IMG/VR virus record: IMGVR_UViG_2897346870_000001 | Location: 1-41,297 of that record | DNA: 41,297 nt | From: a virus | Lineage: Duplodnaviria; Heunggongvirae; Uroviricota; Caudoviricetes | Strand: one strand, 5' to 3' | Shown here: positions 5,007-38,624 of the stretch, one piece after another | Layout of the letters: each line of letters opens with the position of its first letter | How positions within the stretch are numbered: position 1 is the first letter of the stretch | Notes under the pieces: generated by a model | What the model was told of the DNA's origin: nothing | Seen by the model: the letters and a program-made list of their open reading frames with translations, nothing else | Databases searched by the model: none | Translations under genes and position numbers: made by a program

Positions 5007-5087
5007 AACTTGTTACCTCGGTCTGTTACCGTTGAGGTAATAATTATGCGTATTTGGTTTGATGTCAATAGATATGAGTTAAAAAAA

Positions 5088-5102
5088 TTACCTATTAGGT
5101 AA
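5088..5102. promoter_or_regulatory. OL-like operator palindrome TTACCTATTAGGTAA
   Basis: Near-perfect 15-bp inverted repeat at the head of the leftward early operon, just downstream of the repressor gene terminator. Confidence 0.5.
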
Positions 5103-5159: not shown

Positions 5160-5744
5160 TTATTGTTTGTTTTTTTCGTTCTGGTTGATGACAAATTCAA
5201 TATAACTTTCGATCTTTGCTTTCTCGGTTTCGGGTAACAATGCGTAGCGCGAGCGGTCATAGTTGATGGTCGCAGGGTCGTGCGGGTGAATCAGTAATTC
5301 ATAGCCGTGACGCCCGAATGCGGATGCAACATTCTCCAGGGTGGAAATGGAAACGCTGACCTCATTGTTTAACAGGCGGCTGATTGTCACCTGGGCGACG
5401 CCGGATGCGCGGTGAAGTTTTCCCTGTGTTGAAAGGTCGCGGCTTTCGCTCATCCAGCGTTCCAGGTTGTGAGCCGCCAGCTGACCAATGTCGCTTGGGC
5501 CGACAGGCTGAAAACCTTCCTGAGAAAGCGAGCGATCGATATCAAGCCAGTTACGTGGTTTATTGGCGGCAGCTTCAATTTTTCGCGCAACCTGGTCGCC
5601 GATAACCTTCTTGCCAAGAGCCCAGCGGTTTACCAGATTTGCCTGAGTTCCAAGTTTTTCTGCCATCCGCGTCTGAACACCATTGAATTCACGGTCGATC
5701 AAGTCGTTGAGATTTTGCCTGCGGACGTCCTGGATACTTTTCAT
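5160..5744 (-). CDS. Prophage repressor, tandem HTH (XRE-type), no peptidase S24 domain
   Basis: 194 aa with two HTH-like segments (TRMAEKLGTQANLVNRW and ASGVAQVTISRLLNN); divergent from the Cro-like gene across a three-operator region; no LexA-like Ser/Lys autocleavage module recognised. Confidence 0.75.
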   Translation of the reverse strand: MKSIQDVRRQNLNDLIDREFNGVQTRMAEKLGTQANLVNRWALGKKVIGDQVARKIEAAANKPRNWLDIDRSLSQEGFQPVGPSDIGQLAAHNLERWMSESRDLSTQGKLHRASGVAQVTISRLLNNEVSVSISTLENVASAFGRHGYELLIHPHDPATINYDRSRYALLPETEKAKIESYIEFVINQNEKNKQ

Positions 5745-5799: not shown

Positions 5800-5862
5800 T
5801 TACCCAACAGGTAAATGCACCTCATAGGTAACTATCCTTGATTTTTGTTACCTTATGGGTGA
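5800..5862. promoter_or_regulatory. Tripartite OR-like operator region with divergent promoters
   Basis: Three 15-bp sites: 5800..5814 TTACCCAACAGGTAA, 5817..5831 GCACCTCATAGGTAA, 5848..5862 TTACCTTATGGGTGA. Candidate rightward promoter (-35 TTGTTA 5845..5850, -10 TATTAT about 5868..5873) overlaps the third site. Confidence 0.55.
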
Positions 5863-8130: not shown

Positions 8131-8207
8131 TTACCTGTTAGGTAATAAAATATTCTAAAATCTATTGATTTCGTGTCTTATGTGGTTTTTAATTACCTCA
8201 GAGGTAA
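8131..8207. promoter_or_regulatory. Two operator palindromes upstream of the nin-like operon
   Basis: 8131..8145 TTACCTGTTAGGTAA and 8193..8207 TTACCTCAGAGGTAA; the second overlaps the Shine-Dalgarno of the 8211 gene; motif ATGTGGTT at 8180..8187. Confidence 0.45.
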
Positions 8208-11361: not shown

Positions 11362-11402
11362 GAGTAGATTATGCATGATGAATTTGATGGGTTTTGAATA
11401 CT

Positions 11403-11428
11403 GCCGCCAACTATGGCGGCTTTATTTT
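11403..11428 (+). terminator. tR'-like terminator upstream of the late genes
   Basis: GCCGCCA-ACTA-TGGCGGC hairpin followed by TTTATTTT, about 45 nt upstream of the small terminase start. Confidence 0.55.
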
Positions 11429-11471
11429 GCATGGTACTATTACCACAACGGTAACTATTACCACGGTGGTT

Positions 11472-12068
11472 ATGATGCCTGCTGAACCTAAAACCTATAA
11501 ACGCAAATCAACGCAATTTAAGCCACTAACAGCAATGCAGGAGGCTTATTGCCAGTCATACATCAAAACGCCTGAAAACCAGACTCAGGCAGCGATTAAC
11601 GCAGGATTCTCCCCAAATACAGCGGCAGTTAAAGCCAGTGTCATGATGCGCGATGAACGCATTCAAAAACGGATTGCCGAGTTGATGGAGGAGCGCAACA
11701 AACGAATGCGCGTCAGTGCTGATTACGTTCTCATGCGCCTGGTGGAGATCGACCAGATGGACGTGATCGACATCCTCAACGACGATGGGAGCCTTAAACC
11801 AATCCGTGAGTGGCCGAAAATCTGGCGCACTACGCTTAGCGGCTTTGATCTGTCATCGACCATCATGAACATGAACGAGGATTCGATAGAGACAATCCTC
11901 AAAAAAATTAAATGGCCTGACAAGGTGAAGAACCTTGAGCTGATTGGTAAGCATGTTGATGTCAACGCGTTCAAAGAACGCCTGGATGTTAATGTGAATG
12001 TGACAATTGCTGATCGCATAGCGGCAGCCAGGAAGAGACTGAAAGAACGTCAGGATGGCAATCAGTGA
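11472..12068 (+). CDS. Terminase small subunit
   Basis: Terminase_2-type pattern LTAMQEAYCQSYIKTPENQTQAAINAGFSPNTA...IQKRIAEL. Start placed at the internal ATG (MMPAEPK) after the terminator rather than the track start 11394. Confidence 0.75.
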   Translation: MMPAEPKTYKRKSTQFKPLTAMQEAYCQSYIKTPENQTQAAINAGFSPNTAAVKASVMMRDERIQKRIAELMEERNKRMRVSADYVLMRLVEIDQMDVIDILNDDGSLKPIREWPKIWRTTLSGFDLSSTIMNMNEDSIETILKKIKWPDKVKNLELIGKHVDVNAFKERLDVNVNVTIADRIAAARKRLKERQDGNQ

Positions 12069-13540
12069 CAGATACAGCGTTATCTCCTGAAGAGCAGTTG
12101 ATCGAGGATATTGCAGGGTTCACTCACGATCCGCTTGGCTATGCCCTCTATGCGTTCCCGTGGGGGGAAGAAGGGACTGAACTGGCACATGCTACCGGCC
12201 CACGTCAGTGGCAGGCTGATGCGTTCCGAGAGATACGTGATCACCTGCAGAATCCAGCGACGCGCTATCAGCCGCTTATGCTGGCACGCGCTTCTGGTCA
12301 CGGTATTGGTAAATCCGCATTCATCTCAATGCTGATCAACTGGGGCATGTCCACTTGCGAGGATTGTAAGGTCGTGGTGACCGCCAACACCGACAACCAG
12401 CTACGAACGAAGACCTGGCCGGAAATTATCAAGTGGTCGAACCTTGCTATCACGAAAGACTGGTTTACCTGTACCGCTACCGCGATGTACAGCAATGATC
12501 CTGGGCACGACAAGCGGTGGCGAGCTGACGCAATCCCCTGGTCTGAGCACAACACTGAGGCATTCGCCGGACTACACAACGAGCGCAAACGCATCATCGT
12601 GGTATTCGATGAAGCGTCGAACATTGCGGATCTGGTGTGGGAAGTTGCTGAGGGTGCGCTTACGGACGAAGACACTGAGATTATCTGGGTGGCGTTCGGA
12701 AACCCTACACGTAACACCGGGCGTTTCCGCGAATGTTTCCGCAAATATAAACACCGCTGGAAAACTGCGCAGATTGACAGCCGGACGGTGGAAGGCACTA
12801 ACAAACAGCAGTTGCAGAAATGGGTTGATGACTACGGGGAAGACAGCGACTTCGTTAAAATCCGTGTGCGCGGCATATTCCCGGATGCATCTGAATTGCA
12901 GTTTATCCCTACCGGACTTACTGACGAGGCAATGAAACGGGTGGTCACCGCTGCGCAGGTTGCACATGCTCCGGTGATAATCGGCGTTGACCCGGCATAC
13001 TCAGGCGTTGATGACGCTGTGATATACCTGCGGCAGGGGCTGCACAGTAAGGTGCTGTGGACTGGCAACAAGACCACTGACGATCTGATTATGGCGAAGC
13101 GTATCGCTGACTTTGAAGACCGGTACCAGGCTGACGCAGTGTTCATCGACTTCGGTTACGGAACTGGTCTGAAGTCAATCGGTGACGGCTGGGGTCGTAC
13201 ATGGCAACTTGTTCCGTTCGGTGGCGCGTCTACTGACCCGCAGATGCTCAACAAGCGTGGGGAGATGTTCAACTCATGTAAGACATGGCTGAGGCTGGGC
13301 GGCATGCTTGATGACCAGGAAACAGCGGACGACCTGTCGGCGGCAGAGTACAAAGTTCGCGTGGACGGTAAAATCGTTATCGAACCGAAGGAAGATATCA
13401 AGGAGCGGCTTGGGCGTTCTCCTGGTAAAGGCGATGCGCTATTGCTGACGTTTGCTTTCCCTGTGTCGAAGCGTCTGCGAATTCCAGGTCAGCAGAACCA
13501 GCAAGGCAAGGCCATTACAGATTACGATCCCTATGCTTAA
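12065..13540 (+). CDS. Terminase large subunit
   Basis: 491 aa; Walker A-like ARASGHGIGKS and C-terminal nuclease region; ATGA overlap with the small subunit. Confidence 0.85.
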   Translation: MTDTALSPEEQLIEDIAGFTHDPLGYALYAFPWGEEGTELAHATGPRQWQADAFREIRDHLQNPATRYQPLMLARASGHGIGKSAFISMLINWGMSTCEDCKVVVTANTDNQLRTKTWPEIIKWSNLAITKDWFTCTATAMYSNDPGHDKRWRADAIPWSEHNTEAFAGLHNERKRIIVVFDEASNIADLVWEVAEGALTDEDTEIIWVAFGNPTRNTGRFRECFRKYKHRWKTAQIDSRTVEGTNKQQLQKWVDDYGEDSDFVKIRVRGIFPDASELQFIPTGLTDEAMKRVVTAAQVAHAPVIIGVDPAYSGVDDAVIYLRQGLHSKVLWTGNKTTDDLIMAKRIADFEDRYQADAVFIDFGYGTGLKSIGDGWGRTWQLVPFGGASTDPQMLNKRGEMFNSCKTWLRLGGMLDDQETADDLSAAEYKVRVDGKIVIEPKEDIKERLGRSPGKGDALLLTFAFPVSKRLRIPGQQNQQGKAITDYDPYA

Positions 13541-13590
13541 TCCGCTGGTGGGGATAATGTCGTTGATATCCTCTGGTGAGGATAAAACAA

Positions 13591-13626
13591 AGCCAGCTCA
13601 TAGGCTGGCTGTTTGTGACATGTCAC
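13591..13626 (+). terminator. Hairpin after the terminase, immediately followed by GTGACATGTCAC copy 2
   Basis: AGCCAGC-TCATAG-GCTGGCT hairpin 13591..13610, then GTTT and the 12-bp palindrome at 13615..13626. Confidence 0.4.
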
Positions 13627-13630
13627 GGTG

Positions 13631-14137
13631 TTATTGAATTACAATCCAGTCATCAGATAGCAGATCGGTTTGAGATGCCAGCCACGGTACAAAGCAACCG
13701 TCAGCAGTTTTCATCCCAATCCACGGTAGAAGTTTAACGCCAGGTACAAATGTATACTCGTCACCGCATGTAACGTCAAATCGCCAATCGTTCGGAGTGG
13801 CCGATTGCGGTGGCTTAACCAGTTGCAGATACATGCCTTTGCCATTCCATCCGGCACGTGCAATGCGCTTACCATCTTTGAGTGATGACAAAGCAGTGGA
13901 GAAAGATACTGTTGATATTTCAGAACGTTGTGCTGTTATCCAGTCATGGAACGTAACGCTAGTACCATGGTCTTCGCTAAGAGTTAACCCGGCCAGTCCC
14001 TCACTCTGAATTACTTCGTAATGCATTTCATTACCAGCAAAAACGCCATAAAAAACGCAGTCTTCAGCCTGAACGATACGAGAATATTTTAATGGCCATT
14101 CATTTAGATACTTAGCCAACATATCAATTGTTTTCAT
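13631..14137 (-). CDS. DUF2829-domain protein (Tad2-like candidate anti-defence protein) with unknown N-terminal extension
   Basis: C-terminal half carries the DUF2829 hallmarks ARAGWNGKGMYL and WLASQTDLLSDDWIV; leftward gene in an accessory cassette with a tRNA between the terminase and portal. Confidence 0.6.
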   Translation of the reverse strand: MKTIDMLAKYLNEWPLKYSRIVQAEDCVFYGVFAGNEMHYEVIQSEGLAGLTLSEDHGTSVTFHDWITAQRSEISTVSFSTALSSLKDGKRIARAGWNGKGMYLQLVKPPQSATPNDWRFDVTCGDEYTFVPGVKLLPWIGMKTADGCFVPWLASQTDLLSDDWIVIQ

Positions 14138-14335
14138 GATCTCACCTTAAAAAAATGCCCGGCGACCCGGGCGAACTGGAAGCAATGAGTTATGCCTTCC
14201 GTGGCTGTACTGGTTTACAGCATGAAGTCATCGCAATGGCGTCCTGCTGTAAAAAGGGCGGTGATAGTCCTTCAAGGGAAACCATCACCGCCAAGCACCT
14301 GGAACTTCTGGCATCACGGTCCTTAGGCGTGATTC

Positions 14336-14412
14336 TGGCGTGGCATGCAGGATTCGAACCTGCGACCAACCGCTTAGAAGGCGGTTGCTCTGTCCAACTT
14401 AGCTAATGCCAC
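14336..14412 (-). tRNA. tRNA-Arg (anticodon UCU)
   Basis: 77-nt minus-strand cloverleaf: 7-bp acceptor stem GTGGCAT/ATGCCAC, anticodon stem ACCGC/GCGGT with loop CTTCTAA (UCU), T-arm GCAGG-TTCGAAT-CCTGC, discriminator G plus encoded CCA; close to E. coli argU in the 3' half. Confidence 0.85.
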
Positions 14413-14734
14413 AACGCTGAGAGCACTTAGCCTGTTAAGGTGCCACACTTTGTCGCGGCTCCATAAATGCTCTCATCGTTGTACCCTCGTCTCTTCCGAG
14501 GCGTCACACCGAATCGCCGGGATGGTGAATCCCCGTGCGCGGAATAAAACCGCTCGACTTGCACATTCCGGCTACCTGGTTCGTTTGCCCGAGCAAGGGA
14601 GGGTGCCCCTTAAACGTATCCAGACCGCTATCGGCGCATGTGCCATACGCCGTACTGCTCAAAATAAAAGCTCACTCCACCTGTTCAATTTAACGACAAG
14701 CCAGTCAGGTTAATAACCGGAATGAACCATTTGC

Positions 14735-14749
14735 TTACCTGAAAGGTAA
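14735..14749. promoter_or_regulatory. Operator-like palindrome TTACCTGAAAGGTAA upstream of the structural operon
   Basis: Perfect-arm copy of the dispersed motif; CATATGTGGTT at 14791..14801. Confidence 0.4.
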
Positions 14750-14839
14750 TAATTCGTGCGTTAAATGTCAACTATCTACGATAAATAAATCATATGTGGT
14801 TAAATTGGTAATAATTTAATTGCGTACGGAGTCATTGAT

Positions 14840-15046
14840 ATGTGCATGGGTAGCTCACCATCAGTGCCTGCAACACCAGAAGTTCAGGCAGCACCACAGG
14901 AGCAGGATGCCGCCGTTGTTGATGCCCGCGACGAAGAAACACGTCGCCGTCGCGCTGCTGCTGGTCGTAGTTCTACGCTGCTTACCGGTTCTCAGGGCGA
15001 CACATCAACCGCTAATACCAGCGGTAAAACGCTGCTTGGTCAGTAA
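14840..15046 (+). CDS. Small virion-associated protein candidate (Met-Cys N-terminus, T7 gp6.7-like composition)
   Basis: 68 aa, MCMGSSPSVPATPE..., acidic centre then basic stretch; GGAG Shine-Dalgarno; position just before the portal. Confidence 0.4.
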   Translation: MCMGSSPSVPATPEVQAAPQEQDAAVVDARDEETRRRRAAAGRSSTLLTGSQGDTSTANTSGKTLLGQ

Positions 15047-15060
15047 CCGGAGTCATTGAA

Positions 15061-16740
15061 ATGGCGGAAACAACTAAAGAGCGATTGAACAAACAGTTCG
15101 CACAACTTGAAAGCGAGCGTCAGTCGTTCGAGCCGCACTGGCGCGAGTTGAGTGATTACATCAACCCGCGTGGTTCCCGCTTTCTGACTTCTGAGGTTAA
15201 CCGTAACGATCGACGCAATACACGCATTATTGATTCGACCGGGACTATGGCGGCGCGCACTCTTGCCAGCGGCATGATGTCAGGCATAACAAGCCCCGCC
15301 CGTCCGTGGTTTCGCCTGGCTACGCCAGATCCTGAAATGATGGACTATGGCCCTGTTAAGTTGTGGCTTGAGGCGGTGCAGAACCGCATGAACGATATGT
15401 TCAATAAGTCGAATCTCTATCAGTCGCTGCCGCAGTTATACGGAAGCCTCGGCACATACAGCACTGGTGCAATGGCAGTGCTGGAGGATGACGAGGACAT
15501 CATTCGCACAATGCCATTCCCGATAGGCAGTTACTACCTGGCTAACTCACCTCGTGGCAGTGTGGACACCTGTTTTCGCAAGTTCTCTATGACTGTTCGT
15601 CAGCTTGTTCAGGAGTTCGGGCTAAATAACGTCAGCGAATTCGTAAAAAGCATGTGGGAAAGCGGAACCTACGAGAAGTGGATTGAAGTGATGCATTCGG
15701 TTTACCCGAACATTGACCGCGATACATCGAAGCTGGATAGCAAGAACAAGCCATTCAAATCGGTTTATTACGAGGTTGGTGGCGATAACGACAAGTTGTT
15801 GCGTGAGTCCGGATTCGATGAGTTTCCAATTATGGCTCCGCGCTGGGAAGTTAACGGCGAAGATGTTTATGGATCATCATGCCCGGGTATGCTGGCGCTT
15901 GGACCTGTTAAGGCATTGCAGCTTCTCCAGAAGCGCAAGTCGCAGTTGATTGATAAAGCCACCAATCCGCCGATGGTTGCTCCGACTTCCCTCAAGAATC
16001 AGCGTGCCTCCCTTCTTCCTGGCGACATCACGTATATCGATCAGATTACTGGTCAGGATGGTTTCAGGCCTGCTTATCTGGTTAACCCCAGTACAGCAGA
16101 TTTGGTGGCAGACATTCAGGACACTCGTCAAATCATTAACAGCGCCTACTTTGTCGATCTGTTCATGATGTTGCAGAACATCAATACCCGCTCGATGCCT
16201 GTTGAAGCGGTGATCGAAATGAAAGAAGAAAAACTTCTGATGTTGGGGCCGGTTCTGGAGCGTCTGAACGACGAATGTCTTAATCCTCTCATTGACCGCT
16301 CTTTCTCGATGATGGTGCGTAAAAACATGCTGCCGCCACCGCCAGACGTGATGGAAGGTATGCCCCTGAAGGTCGAATACATTTCCGTCATGGCTCAGGC
16401 GCAGAAGTCTATCGGCCTGTCCAGTCTGGCGTCCACGGTTAACTTCATTGGTCAACTTGCGCAAGCGAAACCAGAAGCTCTCGACAAACTCAACGTTGAT
16501 CAGGCGATCGATGCATTCGCTGATATGTCTGGAGTGTCTCCAACCGTCATTGTTCCGCAGGAACAGGTTGAGCAGGCTCGCCAGCAACGGGCACAGCAAC
16601 AACAGCAGCAACAAATGATGGCGATGGGGATAGCGGCGGCACAGGGTGCCAAGACGCTAAGCGAAGCTAAAACTTCGGATCCGAGTGTTTTGTCAGCTAT
16701 GGCGAATGCAGTTAGTGGTCAGGGTGGGCAATCACAATGA
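15061..16740 (+). CDS. Portal (head-to-tail connector) protein
   Basis: 559 aa; position after terminase and before scaffold/capsid; Gln-rich C-terminal tail (QQQQQQQMMAMGIAAAQGA) of the kind seen in T7 gp8-type portals. Confidence 0.7.
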   Translation: MAETTKERLNKQFAQLESERQSFEPHWRELSDYINPRGSRFLTSEVNRNDRRNTRIIDSTGTMAARTLASGMMSGITSPARPWFRLATPDPEMMDYGPVKLWLEAVQNRMNDMFNKSNLYQSLPQLYGSLGTYSTGAMAVLEDDEDIIRTMPFPIGSYYLANSPRGSVDTCFRKFSMTVRQLVQEFGLNNVSEFVKSMWESGTYEKWIEVMHSVYPNIDRDTSKLDSKNKPFKSVYYEVGGDNDKLLRESGFDEFPIMAPRWEVNGEDVYGSSCPGMLALGPVKALQLLQKRKSQLIDKATNPPMVAPTSLKNQRASLLPGDITYIDQITGQDGFRPAYLVNPSTADLVADIQDTRQIINSAYFVDLFMMLQNINTRSMPVEAVIEMKEEKLLMLGPVLERLNDECLNPLIDRSFSMMVRKNMLPPPPDVMEGMPLKVEYISVMAQAQKSIGLSSLASTVNFIGQLAQAKPEALDKLNVDQAIDAFADMSGVSPTVIVPQEQVEQARQQRAQQQQQQQMMAMGIAAAQGAKTLSEAKTSDPSVLSAMANAVSGQGGQSQ

Positions 16741-30890: not shown

Positions 30891-31262
30891 ATGAACAGAA
30901 TTATATTAATGATTATTCTTATGCTTTTAGTTGTAAAATCTTTTGCAGATACTACCTCACCGTTAATGATTCAGCCTAAAAATGGGGAAACACTGGAGGA
31001 TTCTAAAAAGCATACAATGGAATATTTTGGATGTATAAAAGGGCAGGCCGTAAAATACGCTAAGACAGGAGAAAGTGTTGATTCTATATCCAAAGCTTCG
31101 GTTGTGTCATGCGAGTCGTACATACAAAAGATTGCTGAATCAAATATATACTATTTAAATTCCTCTCAAGACGGTAAGCGGAAATTTATTGGAAGGCTTA
31201 AATCAGATGGTGAAAGTTTAGCAACGAAATTTGCTATGGATGAAAAGCTAAAAAATAAATAG
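30891..31262 (+). CDS. AT-rich moron: secreted protein with signal peptide
   Basis: 123 aa; N-terminal MNRIILMIILMLLVVKSFA signal peptide, two Cys; GC content visibly much lower than neighbouring genes; start 1 nt after the preceding stop. Confidence 0.55.
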   Translation: MNRIILMIILMLLVVKSFADTTSPLMIQPKNGETLEDSKKHTMEYFGCIKGQAVKYAKTGESVDSISKASVVSCESYIQKIAESNIYYLNSSQDGKRKFIGRLKSDGESLATKFAMDEKLKNK

Positions 31263-31766: not shown

Positions 31767-31846
31767 TTACCTTTGCGGTAAATTTACATCGCACTCCTCT
31801 TGTGCCATAGTAATCGGGCACTGGCAAAATCCAGTGCCGGGATTGG
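31767..31846. repeat. Inverted repeat IR-A, left copy (antirepressor promoter/leader)
   Basis: About 80 bp, near-identical in reverse complement to 34928..35007; includes operator TTACCTTTGCGGTAA (31767..31781) and the palindromic hairpin GCACTGG-CAAAAT-CCAGTGC. Confidence 0.8.
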
Positions 31847-32048
31847 TCTCCCGGATTACTACAGAGGCACATATGCCGCATAAGCGGTTTTTTTATGTGT
31901 AAAGCGCACCTATTCTATGGTGGGCTGTGTGGGGGCACCGAAAGGTGCGCCGGGTTCCTTTGTAGCCGGTAAGACCAACTCTGCACAGTTCACCACCATC
32001 TGATTGGTCTCAGCGGTGGTGATTAACCTAACTACAAAGGTGATCGCC

Positions 32049-32741
32049 ATGAATACCAAACCTTCCATCTTTTCCTTTGAGTCATCCTGCCAGATCCGTA
32101 TGTTCATGATTGACGGAGAACCTTGGTTTGTCACCAAAGATGTGTGCAATGCTTTGAATATTGATGTTACACAAGCGAGAAAACTTGATAAAAAAGGCTG
32201 GAACAAAAAGGGGCTGTATTCAATACAGACCCCTGGTGGAATACAAGAACTATCCATCGTTTCAGAATCAGGTCTCTACATCCTTATTCTGCGTTGCAAA
32301 GAGGCAATGACTGAGGGAACGAGAGCATTCAGATTTCTTGAATGGGTTACAGGTGAGGTTCTTCCTCAGATCCGCCGCACCGGAAGCTACATTAAAAACT
32401 CGCTCCCGCAGGAAGAGCGCATAAAGATGGTTGCCGACCAGGTAGCCAACGCCACGGCGTCAGCAGTAATGCAGGCGATGAAGATAGAGAACAAAACCTA
32501 CAGTGCCCCACTGAAGCCCGGCTACCGCAGCCTGATTCATTCGCCGTCTGGTGTTCTCGGCCTGACGGAGAACTCACTGCTGATGAATCTGCTGAACCAG
32601 TTACAGGAAGACGGGCATGACGTATCGGGCGCGGCGGCGGAGTTGACCACCATGTTCTGCTACATCGTCGGTGTGAACAAATGCCTGCGTGATATCCAGA
32701 CGCACGCGGAGTACATCAACGACAAAGCAGGGTTCTTCTGA
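32049..32741 (+). CDS. Antirepressor, BRO-N N-terminal domain plus shared C-terminal domain (copy 1)
   Basis: N-terminus MNTKPSIFSFESSCQIRMFMIDGEPWFVTKDVCNALNI is a BRO-N-type fold; C-terminal 125 aa nearly identical to the gene at 34013..34723; AGGTGA Shine-Dalgarno. Confidence 0.7.
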   Translation: MNTKPSIFSFESSCQIRMFMIDGEPWFVTKDVCNALNIDVTQARKLDKKGWNKKGLYSIQTPGGIQELSIVSESGLYILILRCKEAMTEGTRAFRFLEWVTGEVLPQIRRTGSYIKNSLPQEERIKMVADQVANATASAVMQAMKIENKTYSAPLKPGYRSLIHSPSGVLGLTENSLLMNLLNQLQEDGHDVSGAAAELTTMFCYIVGVNKCLRDIQTHAEYINDKAGFF

Positions 32742-33056: not shown

Positions 33057-33569
33057 CTATGCAGGCTTTTTGGATTTGTACGAATAATCCCACGGATAAA
33101 CATTTCTACTAAGTGGAGCTGTATTCGTTCGTTCATGAAATAATTTTGTGAAATTCAATACGGAATCCATCCAAACTTTTGCGTTAGCTTTGGTGTGTGC
33201 GGGCGGGTCCCAATAAGCTAGTAAGGCTGCATCTCTTATTTCATTGACTGCATATATGAGATATGCGTTACTGGTTGGTTTTGGCCTGTAATTTCCTTGT
33301 TCATCAATCAATCCATATGACCACTCATCCCAACACTGTTCAGTACATGAGTATGAATATGATGCATATTCACCAATATTGACATGAACCTTTCTGAGAT
33401 GGAAGCCTAATACTTCCTCTGGTCTTTCAAAAAGAGTATCTTTTCCCAGATCAGGATGATGACCATGACGCCAGTGTTGTTTAAAAGCATCTTTTAGCGA
33501 AATCAGAAAGTCATCAGTTTTAAACTCACCAGTAGGTATAACCTTCCCGCTATACTCACTCAAAAACAT
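33057..33569 (-). CDS. YafO-like toxin candidate (type II toxin-antitoxin family)
   Basis: By-eye alignment to E. coli YafO recalled from memory: HPDLGKDTLFE vs LPDIFGRDALYD, LRKVHVNI vs ERVAHIHL, AYLIYAVNEIRDAALLAYWDPPAH vs AHLVYCQGAFDEQAWLLIAILKPEPH. AT-rich; overlaps the upstream gene by 14 nt. Confidence 0.5.
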   Translation of the reverse strand: MFLSEYSGKVIPTGEFKTDDFLISLKDAFKQHWRHGHHPDLGKDTLFERPEEVLGFHLRKVHVNIGEYASYSYSCTEQCWDEWSYGLIDEQGNYRPKPTSNAYLIYAVNEIRDAALLAYWDPPAHTKANAKVWMDSVLNFTKLFHERTNTAPLSRNVYPWDYSYKSKKPA

Positions 33570-33882
33570 CGAATTCCTCTTCCTTCATATGCGTTTCTAA
33601 TGAGTTAAGCTGGCGGAAAGATATCTCTTTTGATTCTGCAGATGAGAGCTTTTTTATCCGCTTTATATTCTTTGTGATAGGAATAGACATTGTATGCACA
33701 TCAGCGGATGCTCTTGGCTTTGTGCTGATAAAAATATGGCGCAATGCCGCATTTTCACTATTGAACGAGCCAATAGCTGATTTACGTGCTACAACCTTAC
33801 CAGTAAAAATACGACTCTTGCTACGCTTTGCATGAGTTCCGCTTCTTACCGGACCTCTCATCACGAATCCAAGTTTTGTCAT
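33556..33882 (-). CDS. Putative antitoxin/partner of the YafO-like gene (unknown family)
   Basis: 108 aa, basic with acidic C-terminus (MKEEEFDVFE); first gene of a two-gene overlapping operon; GGAG Shine-Dalgarno. Confidence 0.35.
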   Translation of the reverse strand: MTKLGFVMRGPVRSGTHAKRSKSRIFTGKVVARKSAIGSFNSENAALRHIFISTKPRASADVHTMSIPITKNIKRIKKLSSAESKEISFRQLNSLETHMKEEEFDVFE

Positions 33883-33924: not shown

Positions 33925-33939
33925 TTACCTTTAAGGTAA
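33925..33939. promoter_or_regulatory. Operator palindrome TTACCTTTAAGGTAA upstream of the toxin-like operon
   Basis: Perfect-arm copy of the dispersed motif, 43 nt upstream of the 33882 start on the minus strand. Confidence 0.45.
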
Positions 33940-34010: not shown

Positions 34011-34413
34011 TGTCAGAAGAACCCTGCCTTGTCGTTGATGTACTCCGCGTGCGTCTGGATATCACGCAGGCATTTGCTCACACCGACGATGTAGCAGAAC
34101 ATGGTGGTCAGTTCCGCCGCCGCGCCCGATACATCATGCCCGTCGTCCTGCAACTGATTCAGCAGATTCATCAGCAATGAGTTCTCCGTCAGGCCGAGAA
34201 CACCAGACGGCGAATGAATCAGACTGCGGTAGCCGGGCTTCAGCGGGGCGCTGTAGGTTTTGTTCTCTATCTTCATCGCCTGCATTACTGCTGACGCCGT
34301 GGCGTTGGCTACCTGGTCGGCAACCATCTTTATGCGTTCTTCCTGCGGGAGCGAGTTTTTAATGTAACTTCCGGTGCGGCGGATCTGAGGAAGAACCTCA
34401 CCTGTAACCCATT
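34011..34413. repeat. Inverted repeat IR-B, right copy
   Basis: Reverse complement of 32341..32743. Confidence 0.85.
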
Positions 34414-34723
34414 TGCGAAAGCGGTAGGGGATAGTGCCTGGTGTCACTGCGTCGCGGCAGCGGAGGATCAGTGTGTAGAGGCCTGACTCGGAGATGATGT
34501 TGATCTCTTTTACTCGGCTGTCAAAAATTGCACGATGTTCATGCCCTATGTTGAACATAGACCTTTCATCATCATCCAGTTTTTCAAGTGCTTGGGTGAC
34601 GTTTTGGATACGCAGCGCACTACAAACGTCTTGGGCTACAAACCATGGTTGGCCATCGATAATGATGGAACGGATAGGGTTAACAGATTCAAATTTGAAG
34701 ATGGCAGTTTGAGCATTAGCCAT
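34013..34723 (-). CDS. Antirepressor, BRO-N N-terminal domain plus shared C-terminal domain (copy 2)
   Basis: N-terminus MANAQTAIFKFESVNPIRSIIIDGQPWFVAQDVCSALRI (BRO-N-type); C-terminal domain differs from copy 1 at only 2 of about 118 residues; GGAG Shine-Dalgarno. Confidence 0.7.
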   Translation of the reverse strand: MANAQTAIFKFESVNPIRSIIIDGQPWFVAQDVCSALRIQNVTQALEKLDDDERSMFNIGHEHRAIFDSRVKEINIISESGLYTLILRCRDAVTPGTIPYRFRKWVTGEVLPQIRRTGSYIKNSLPQEERIKMVADQVANATASAVMQAMKIENKTYSAPLKPGYRSLIHSPSGVLGLTENSLLMNLLNQLQDDGHDVSGAAAELTTMFCYIVGVSKCLRDIQTHAEYINDKAGFF

Positions 34724-34927
34724 GGTGGTTATCTCCACTTAGTGATTTTAATCACCACCGCAACGCCAATTACTGGTGGTGAACTGGACAAGGTTGGCGT
34801 ACCGGCCTAAGTGGTACCGGCGTCCTTTCGGACCCCTGCCCAGCCCACCATAATTCGGATATAGCTGTGCTTAACGCATAAAAAAACCACGTCTGGCGTG
34901 GTATGCGCCACTTAGTAACTCGGGACG

Positions 34928-35007
34928 CCAATCCCGGCACTGGATTTTGCCAGTACCCGATTACTATGGCACAAGAGGAGTGCGATGTAAATTTACCTCA
35001 AAGGTAA
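34928..35007. repeat. Inverted repeat IR-A, right copy (antirepressor 2 promoter/leader)
   Basis: Reverse complement of 31767..31846; contains operator at 34993..35007 (TTACCTCAAAGGTAA). Confidence 0.8.
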
Positions 35008-35372: not shown

Positions 35373-35387
35373 TCACCTGAAAGGTAA
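35373..35387. promoter_or_regulatory. Operator-like palindrome TCACCTGAAAGGTAA in the divergent region before the tailspike
   Basis: One-mismatch copy of the motif; CATATGTGGTT at 35418..35428. Confidence 0.4.
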
Positions 35388-38207: not shown

Positions 38208-38624
38208 ATGGTGTTTATCATGTCAATTCAGACAACCAGTGATTCTTTGAATCAGTGGCTTAGCATGACTTCTCTGGCGGCGGTGATAGCAGGAGTTCCT
38301 CCCGAGGTTGCTTTGGGGGCTTTGGCTGGAGCGGTAATTTTTGTTACCTCTGCGGTAGAGTATCCCATTCGTCGTCGTGTACTCTTGTCGATGCTTAGCT
38401 TTCTCTGCGGCCTTCTTTTTTATAAACCAGCAGCATCAATTCTTATCGGCATAGCCAGCCTGATCCCTACTATCACGCAGGACTCTTTTGAAAAAGGGAT
38501 TGTTTTCTCTGCTGGCGCATTCGTGTCAGCAATTGTTGCTGTGCGTATTGGTATATGGCTCTACCACCGTTCCGATAATCCACGCGAGTTAATTCCGGGG
38601 AGAAAAGACGATGGTAACGCATGA
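38208..38624 (+). CDS. Holin
   Basis: Small protein with multiple hydrophobic transmembrane segments and charged C-terminus; first gene of the lysis cassette. Dual ATG starts at 38208 and 38220. Confidence 0.6.
   Translation: MVFIMSIQTTSDSLNQWLSMTSLAAVIAGVPPEVALGALAGAVIFVTSAVEYPIRRRVLLSMLSFLCGLLFYKPAASILIGIASLIPTITQDSFEKGIVFSAGAFVSAIVAVRIGIWLYHRSDNPRELIPGRKDDGNA

Follow-up and report, generated by a model that had tools for sequence, protein, structure and literature searches.

The window analysed here is the full stretch of 41,297 nucleotides held in the IMG/VR virus record IMGVR_UViG_2897346870_000001. The phage phiV10 and its relatives (genus Uetakevirus) were 98–99% identical to the region, as were prophages of many E. 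coli chromosomes, and the window is a phiV10/epsilon15-like (Uetakevirus) prophage with the gene order integrase (1-1251), repressor/cro, replication, terminase, portal, capsid and tail, tailspike and lysis. The subject of this study is a leftward unit located between the terminase and portal genes. It carries a tRNA-Arg(UCU) gene and, beyond two hairpins, an open reading frame (ORF) of 168 codons whose product is a chimera, made of an N-terminal module of unknown function (hereafter N-domain) joined in frame to a domain of the Tad2 family of signal sponges. Such sponges decide whether the Thoeris, CBASS and Pycsar defences work, and new sponge families were recently found via the fusion partners of known ones. 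An initial annotation, made from the sequence alone, had placed the tRNA and the ORF between terminase and portal, both reading opposite to these genes, and had noted the GWNGKGM and PWLASQTDLLSDDW signatures in the ORF at 13631-14137 (minus strand); all of this was found as described. The features of the locus were the following:

12065-13540, plus strand: large terminase gene
13591..13610, both strands: hairpin closing the leftward gene and, on the other strand, following the terminase gene (hairpin scan)
13631..14137, minus strand: chimeric ORF, 168 residues, WP_250205060.1, named "DUF2829 domain-containing protein"
13637..13906, minus strand: Tad2-like (PF11195) domain, residues 78-167
13917..13921, minus strand: recombination junction, GAAA(T) microhomology of the two parent alleles (overlapping BLAST segments, query bases 287-291; DNA alignment)
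13919..14137, minus strand: N-domain, residues 1-73, phrog_4846-type module of unknown function
14141..14148, minus strand: ribosome-binding site AAGGTGAG, common to all small (sponge-type) alleles
14149..14172, minus strand: terminator-like hairpin 2, GCCCGG-GTCG-CCGGGC followed by A and T7, directly 5' of the ribosome-binding site
14257..14292, minus strand: terminator-like hairpin 1, a 14-bp stem followed by CTTTTT, directly 3' of the tRNA (hairpin scan)
14336..14412, minus strand: tRNA-Arg(UCU), argU-like, CCA encoded (ARAGORN, Rfam)
14413..14736, minus strand: conserved leader of about 324 nt from promoter to tRNA, with several hairpins
14735..14749, both strands: palindromic putative operator TTACC-N5-GGTAA over the -10 and the likely start site
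14743..14748, minus strand: putative -10 hexamer TACCTT, 17 nt past the -35
14766..14771, minus strand: -35 hexamer TTGACA, read from the sequence, of the presumed leftward promoter for leader, tRNA and accessory gene
15061-16740, plus strand: portal gene

A chimera of two alleles of one slot

The origin of the 168-residue protein was visible in a DNA alignment of three alleles occupying the same position. Strain ECSC054 carries a stand-alone 98-residue DUF2829 protein, about 99% identical to the C-terminal part of the chimera, and strain 04-00955 carries a 139-residue phrog_4846 protein, which is identical to the N-terminal part over residues 1-73. The flanks are identical in all three alleles, upstream through the hairpin, the T7 tract, the ribosome-binding site and the start codon, and downstream from the stop codon. 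The switch between parents falls at the GAAA(T) microhomology at 13917-13921. The protein is an in-frame chimera, produced by recombination between two alleles of one slot. A fusion had been guessed at in the initial annotation; the alignment bears this out at the DNA level, the two halves matching two parent alleles.

The exact protein was present on 7–12 public contigs from unrelated samples, so the gene is not an assembly artefact; the stand-alone 98-residue form was present on more than 450 contigs. In six loci with differing early-region mosaics the DNA of the chimeric gene was 100% identical, which points to one recent origin followed by spread. The chimera was not found in 5426 complete E. 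coli genomes or in 50,697 phage records. Other fusions of the N-domain to Tad2, with different junctions, were seen neither in protein searches nor in 120 IMG/VR loci; clustering can hide such proteins, and the chimera itself sat in a cluster represented by the 98-residue form.

No in-frame Met codon exists from codon 38 to codon 102 (GTG and TTG starts fall outside this check), so the Tad2 domain is most likely made only as a fusion. One GenBank record gives the locus at 13631-13939 as a 102-residue protein ("MTAQRSE") starting at the ATA codon of I67, which hides the N-domain. We prefer the 168-residue reading because it uses the ribosome-binding site and the ATG common to all alleles. The current annotation name, "DUF2829 domain-containing protein", conceals the chimera.

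The two domains of the protein

The profile PF11195 (Tad2-like, formerly DUF2829) matched residues 78-167 over profile positions 2-73 of 73, with 83.8 bits (E 1.2e-23) against a cut-off of 25 bits, as expected from the earlier assignment of the C-terminal half to this family. The kinship with Tad2 proposed at the same time was equally apparent among the solved proteins (HgmTad2/AcrIIA7, SptTad2, ModTad2 and SPO1 gp34.65): all seven distinct PDB sequences aligned, with E values of 3e-14 to 2e-11 for single-sequence and 2e-22 to 2e-19 for profile comparisons, and the ligand pocket was conserved. Residues 78-167 are predicted from these alignments to adopt the Tad2 fold, a helix alpha-1 with an antiparallel sheet.

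The roles of the pocket residues were taken from structural studies (10.1101/2023.05.01.538930; 10.1101/2023.11.15.567273), in which mutation of W21/N22 or of S90/T92/D93 in HgmTad2 abolished the binding of gcADPR; numbering follows the alignments. The pocket of the chimera consists of W97, N98, M142, T144, D146, V150, W152, S155, T157 and D158. Eight of the ten residues that contact gcADPR or coordinate water in the SPO1 Tad2 are identical (W25, N26, T65, D67, W73, S76, T78 and D79, corresponding to W97, N98, T144, D146, W152, S155, T157 and D158, respectively). The other two, I63 and H71, are replaced by M142 and V150, matching M76 and V84 of HgmTad2. All five mutation-validated residues of HgmTad2 (W21/N22, S90/T92/D93) are kept. 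The pocket used by HgmTad2 for cyclic dinucleotides (cGG/cGAMP), composed of R31, S47, F70 and N85, is not conserved: R31 corresponds to K108 and F70 to L136, and N85 is deleted. The variable insertion between strands measures 30 residues, compared to 24 in SPO1 and 41 in HgmTad2. The canonical WLASQTD and GWNG pocket is intact; the His-ADPR binder ModTad2 has WTPSVSD. Because the gcADPR pocket of SPO1 and HgmTad2 is kept and the cyclic-dinucleotide pocket of HgmTad2 is lost, the domain is predicted to be a gcADPR-type sponge. We can only infer this ligand, since Tad2 homologues can also act against Pycsar, CBASS or Thoeris of type II or IV: when 18 homologues were tested, every one of these systems, and type I Thoeris as well, was inhibited by at least one of them, and many inhibited several (PMC12393519).

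The N-terminal part had been described as having no recognisable family. Residues 1-75 indeed had no match in Pfam, NCBIfam or PADLOC, but they matched PHROG 4846, a family of unknown function, over positions 1-75 of 140 (E 2e-48). The chimera is not a full-length phrog_4846 protein, which comprises the N-domain and a helical C-terminal domain; this second half is replaced. Relatives of the N-domain were few, with 14 among 1.84 billion representatives in an exhaustive HMMER search and 85 among 5.8 billion clusters in a profile search, the latter all from Enterobacteriaceae. In every case the domain forms the N-terminus of its protein. A helical segment usually comes next, in some cases a further domain, and the different C-terminal modules found with it number at least four. 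Members in Klebsiella, Cedecea and Salmonella occupy the same slot, and this small family is restricted to that position of Enterobacteriaceae prophages. W14, W66, R20 and D56 are conserved in the N-domain, which is acidic. A first model built from 27 close homologues reached a pLDDT of 60.7 and was not used. With the distant members added, the deeper alignment gave an AlphaFold2 model with a pLDDT of 93.3 and a pTM of 0.81, showing a helix, three strands, a long loop, a strand and a helix. No similar solved structure was found for this model, and the best matches among predicted viral structures were uncharacterised phage proteins (TM approximately 0.7). The N-domain does not represent a second Tad2 domain.

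The slot, its transcription and the tRNA

A census of slot occupants was made in IMG/VR, where 120 loci were collected with a 17-nt leader motif and 62 had a slot delimited by the terminase gene. The 62 slots held Acb4 (27), membrane coiled-coil proteins (12), the N-family (five, plus three with its C-terminal part only), Tad2 (three) and unclassified proteins (12). One of these last is an Acb2/Tad1-hairpin protein (PF24729, E 3.6e-17; locus L107, 410-703). One of three known sponge families (Acb4, Tad2, Acb2) was present in 31 of the 62 slots, which is half of them. phiV10 has a Gp49-family protein (PF13876) at the slot, as do at least 143 complete E. coli genomes; PF13876 is the Acb4 family of anti-CBASS sponges (PMC11722364). 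The 198-nt spacer between ORF and tRNA was found in 503 of the 5426 complete E. coli genomes (about 9%). The fixed position, the identical flanks and the alternative known counter-defence genes in related phages are those of an anti-defence hotspot. The whole leftward unit had been called an accessory cassette: this is right for the protein gene, which is exchangeable, but the tRNA, the terminators and the spacer are conserved backbone, and only the gene after the second terminator varies.

The other occupants were diverse. Next to the same tRNA, a Klebsiella epsilon15-like phage carries in this slot (locus L018, 1983-2504) a 173-residue two-domain Tad2 protein nearly identical to Kapi1_043, the gene of which lies after the lysis genes in the E. 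coli P22-like phage Kapi1 (L015, 2285-2806); this gene therefore moves between phage genera and slots. The membrane alleles (phrog_4780/13369) encode proteins of 200-306 residues in which membrane helices at the N-terminus accompany a long coiled coil, for example in the E. coli strains of loci L010 (447-1265) and L012 (519-1220). The larger ones bring their own TATAAT-like sequence. They may be prophage exclusion or defence proteins rather than counter-defence. Further IMG/VR occupants (L044 386-655, L096 619-885, L062 371-811, L049 320-565) were a stand-alone protein of 88 residues similar to the N-terminal domain that precedes Tad2 in Kapi1_043, a Cys-rich protein (about 146 residues) and an 81-residue protein without family. 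Beyond the families named above, Pfam, NCBIfam and PADLOC returned only coiled-coil noise for the N-domain and the other slot alleles, and no paper on them was found in the literature under accession or PHROG number. The slot yields a short list of candidate counter-defence genes, and the 98- and 168-residue forms are a natural pair for the contribution of the N-domain.

The promoter assigned to the unit, TTGACA-17-TACCTT, is located approximately 355 nt upstream of the tRNA. In a cross-genus alignment its hexamers were conserved over four genera, with a variable spacer: TTGAC of the -35 was invariant in the E. coli, Klebsiella, Cedecea and Salmonella relatives, and the -10 was TACCTT in the window, phiV10, Klebsiella and Cedecea and TACCCT in Salmonella. 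A sigma-70 consensus scan of 13400-15200 returned no promoter, and missed this one because its -10 matches the consensus at only three of six positions. Promoter, leader and gene persist in relatives devoid of the tRNA.

The -10 is overlapped by the palindrome TTACC-N5-GGTAA. The window contains 14 such sites, nearly all of them intergenic, against 0.64 expected, and none of 100 shuffled sequences reached 14. They were located as follows:

5026-5040
5088-5102
5800-5814
5848-5862
8131-8145
8193-8207
11440-11454
11458-11472
14735-14749
31767-31781
33925-33939
34993-35007
35373-35387
38344-38358

The helix-turn-helix repressor gene (5160-5744) has a pair of sites on either side, and the AATTATTACC-N5-GGTAA arrangement recurs at the early leftward promoter near 5071. 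Across genera the half-sites are invariant and the 5-nt spacer is variable. The palindrome looks like the operator of a repressor that would control many prophage units directly, beyond the two early promoters; no published operator for phiV10-like phages was found in the literature. Since the repressor gene is flanked by copies of the putative operator found over the -10 of the unit, the unit would be silent in the lysogen and released with the early promoters. This arrangement suggests how a temperate phage times its counter-defence.

Two observations were made on other copies of these motifs. A second exact AATTATTACC is found at 14807-14816 (minus strand), within a block (14790-14830) almost invariant over the four genera, just upstream of the leftward -35 and, on the other strand, just 5' of a 68-residue gene and the portal gene. 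This copy may belong to a divergent rightward promoter or be a second regulator site. The start of the small terminase gene (11394-12068, plus strand) is ambiguous between records, with 224 residues from a TTG or 197 from a downstream ATG. The presence of two operator palindromes within the first 80 nt of the longer version favours the shorter one, with a regulated promoter in front.

Downstream of the promoter, the leader had a fold z-score of -2.5, compensatory changes in 14 of 74 predicted pairs (five sequences) and no match in Rfam. The leader may act as a processed small RNA, or it may aid read-through of the two downstream hairpins, a mechanism that we offer as a hypothesis only. Hairpin 1 (with one or two stem substitutions) and its T-run were conserved in all nine aligned slot alleles, as was hairpin 2, with a compensatory stem change in one strain. 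The ribosome-binding site directly follows the T7 tract of hairpin 2, so the small alleles lack a separate promoter. The stretch from hairpin 1 to hairpin 2 was also considered as a promoter site and rejected: visual inspection gave weak matches only, and one Gp49 allele has lost part of this stretch. The gene had been described as a moron. It does run counter to the late genes, but the promoter directly upstream that characterises a moron was missing, with no room after the T7 tract and no candidate in the scan, and the operator on the promoter of the unit makes expression in the lysogen doubtful. In the phiV10 record, the site equivalent to the closing hairpin at 13591..13610 is annotated as a putative rho-independent terminator.

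The tRNA-Arg(UCU) at 14336-14412 (minus strand) was the sole tRNA found by ARAGORN in the window (anticodon TCT). Rfam RF00005 agreed with 69.2 bits for a threshold of 29 (E 1.8e-14), and the cloverleaf of the initial annotation was thus accepted by both programs. The tRNA is identical to K-12 argU at 63 of 77 positions (82%), including the anticodon loop, the T-arm, A20, C35 and G73, and CCA is encoded; the differences in the acceptor and anticodon stems are compensatory. We take A20, C35, G73 and the CCA end to be the features of the host arginine acceptor, identity elements for arginyl-tRNA synthetase (ArgRS). Nuclease-evading changes were sought in the anticodon loop, and none was found relative to argU. 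AGA codons numbered 10.8 per 1000 in the early genes and 10.7 in the right arm, compared to 2.3 in the packaging and structural genes (an approximately five-fold difference). The earlier suggestion of AGA supply fits these counts, but it fails for the adjacent gene, as the 168-codon ORF contains no AGA or AGG codon. Every E. coli allele examined carried the tRNA, whereas 22 of the 62 wider loci lacked it and 40 had it; it is an optional backbone element outside the exchangeable gene.

Plus-strand ORFs over the tRNA and leader (14155-14406 and 14450-14713) were judged spurious and look like annotation artefacts. The GenBank record of phiV10 annotates the equivalent of 14155-14406 as the coding sequence PhiV10p04 and leaves the tRNA unannotated. 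Elsewhere in the window, an AGA-rich pair of genes of low GC content (0.39-0.40) is located at 33057-33882 (minus strand), between the Bro-N genes 32004-32741 and 34013-34738. Its larger product had a weak, sub-threshold match to the YafO toxin (E 7e-4), and the pair may be a toxin-antitoxin-like or other right-arm accessory module. An ORF of 123 residues at 30891-31262 (plus strand; GC 0.33), directly after an 850-residue tail or injection gene and without Pfam match, is likely a further foreign insertion.

Interpretation and comparison with known systems

The chimeric origin, the confidently folded N-domain, the exchange of three sponge families and of unknowns in one slot, and the likely repressor control are new here, whereas the Tad2 domain by itself is unremarkable within a family that has been studied well. 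We propose that the leftward unit would run from an operator-overlapped promoter through the leader, the tRNA and two hairpins to one exchangeable gene and a final terminator. It would be off in the lysogen and turned on alongside the early promoters. The Tad2 domain would assemble like the solved Tad2 tetramers and would sequester an ADP-ribose signal made by TIR proteins, most likely the 3'cADPR (1''-3' gcADPR) of type I Thoeris, which would keep the abortive-infection effector of the host from firing during lytic growth. The N-domain would probably act as a second, independent counter-defence module on the same polypeptide, and the tRNA would assist translation of the AGA-rich early and right-arm genes. 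The core of this explanation, namely an exchangeable slot, a chimeric gene, a Tad2 sponge most likely for 3'cADPR, a repressor-controlled unit and a tRNA aiding AGA-rich genes, is in our opinion reasonably probable.

Several points weigh against it. The chimera is rare (7–12 contigs compared to more than 450 for the stand-alone form) and shows zero sequence variation, hence selection on it is not assessable. In the pocket, one water-mediated contact differs, T82 of HgmTad2 corresponding to C148. The signal bound also differs widely among Tad2 homologues (PMC12393519). The N-domain directly precedes helix alpha-1, a tetramerisation element; natural Tad2 proteins with other N-terminal domains exist, one of them in the PDB (9kzr). 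Two terminator-like hairpins separate the gene from its only recognisable promoter. Finally, in the P22-like Kapi1, a Tad2-like gene is the most highly expressed prophage gene in lysogens, which weighs against an expression restricted to the lytic cycle (PMC12922286).

The variety of Tad2 ligands raises the question of whether the domain is a working sponge for another signal, instead of or besides 3'cADPR: His-ADPR (type II), N7-cADPR (type IV), cyclic UMP/CMP (Pycsar) or the cyclic dinucleotides of CBASS. The inhibition of several defences by many of the 18 homologues (PMC12393519), an insertion intermediate in length (30 residues, with 24 in SPO1 and 41 in HgmTad2) and the fact that the commonest slot occupant is an anti-CBASS sponge are in favour of such a change. 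We nevertheless regard it as rather unlikely, given that the WLASQTD and GWNG motifs are intact, unlike WTPSVSD in ModTad2, and that the HgmTad2 pocket for cyclic dinucleotides is not conserved (R31 to K, F70 to L, N85 deleted). The rarity, single origin and zero variation of the allele, its absence from the 5426 genomes and 50,697 phage records, and a junction of 4-5 nt of microhomology typical of illegitimate recombination would also be expected from a recent neutral or mildly harmful accident, in which the N-domain would be inert or would spoil Tad2 assembly in an allele not yet lost. This appears quite unlikely to us: the recombination left the frame open and the shared ribosome-binding site in place, and retained the two domains in full; the allele is carried by prophages with at least four distinct early-region mosaics and comes from unrelated samples; Tad2 proteins of several domains are common, and they function; and, as no internal start is apparent, Tad2 is most likely made only as the fusion, so that a loss of function would have a cost.

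The roles of the two domains might also be reversed, the N-domain being the principal active part (for instance a protein that inhibits a host defence) and Tad2 being mostly an oligomerisation scaffold in place of the helical C-terminus of the N-family. The N-domain is always N-terminal to at least four different C-terminal modules, its usual helical partner was swapped out exactly at the domain boundary, and it is acidic with conserved W14, W66, R20 and D56. The Tad2 pocket residues are fully kept, though the event is too recent for visible decay, and no N-family member has a known function; we consider this reversal most unlikely. As for the tRNA, phage tRNAs that bypass tRNA-targeting defences are known, and the other cargo of the same transcription unit consists of counter-defence genes. 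Its task could be to make good the loss of host tRNA-Arg to cleavage or depletion by an anticodon nuclease, and not codon supply. An anticodon loop identical to that of the host argU gives no sign of nuclease evasion, the five-fold excess of AGA in early and right-arm genes over structural genes supports codon supply, and 22 of the 62 related slots lack the tRNA, which makes such a device very unlikely.

Within the favoured explanation, the N-domain is a candidate counter-defence module following the logic by which Sequestin was discovered, as a fusion partner of known sponges; this candidacy rests on association, not on activity. The N-domain is fused to Tad2, is confined to the slot of Acb4, Tad2 and Acb2, and has a fold without solved relative. 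We tentatively advance the possibility, which we hold with limited confidence, that it represents a novel counter-defence module, either a signal sponge of a new kind or a protein that directly inhibits a component of host immunity, and that the Uetakevirus terminase–portal slot is a repressor-controlled, early-expressed anti-defence island. The structured leader might then permit RNA polymerase to read through the two terminators. If this is true, the other unknowns of the slot (the membrane coiled-coil proteins, the 81-residue protein, the Cys-rich protein of about 146 residues and the stand-alone Kapi1_043-type N-terminal domain) become further defence or counter-defence candidates.

Among known systems, the characterised Tad2 proteins (SPO1 gp34.65, HgmTad2/AcrIIA7, SptTad2; PF11195) resemble the C-terminal 90 residues of the window protein in the GWNG and WLASQTD motifs and in the gcADPR residues proven by mutation, but none has its 73-residue N-terminal domain. 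The protein does not belong with the dual sponges of HgmTad2 type (gcADPR and cyclic dinucleotides); the pocket for cyclic dinucleotides is not conserved. The two-domain Tad2 proteins of Kapi1_043/phrog_872 type (166-175 residues, enterobacterial prophages) have a similar size and the same order, an extra N-terminal domain and then Tad2, and one member lies in the same terminase–tRNA slot of a Klebsiella phage. Their N-terminal domain (YIGVK...SWSPKEVFEKAY type) is unrelated in sequence to the N-domain, and the Kapi1_043 gene itself, which lies past the lysis genes in its P22-like phage, shows high expression in lysogens. The fused sponges Acb4-Tad2 (Pasteurella phage Pm86) and Sequestin (PF21825)-Tad2 likewise combine Tad2 with a second small phage domain in one polypeptide. 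These fusions block two signalling systems at once, and the fusion pattern led to the Sequestin sponge family (PMC12265669). The partner in the window is neither PF13876 nor PF21825, and is without known function or solved structural relative. Acb4 (PF13876, the N4 Gp49/Sf6 gp66 family; PhiV10p03) occupies the exact position with the same hairpins and ribosome-binding site, but is an unrelated family, the window protein having no PF13876 match. The tRNA shares with E. coli argU and other phage tRNA-Arg(UCU) the anticodon loop, the T-arm, A20, G73 and the encoded CCA (82% identity to K-12 argU); it differs from argU by compensatory changes in the stems and by its location in a phage unit, between a structured leader and two terminators. 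The closest counterparts of the N-terminal part are the phrog_4846 proteins (139-140 residues, e.g., WP_016236152.1), which share residues 1-73, the slot, the promoter, the ribosome-binding site and the start codon, and whose helical C-terminal half (KLQCL...AINAGFDAI) is replaced by Tad2 in the chimera.

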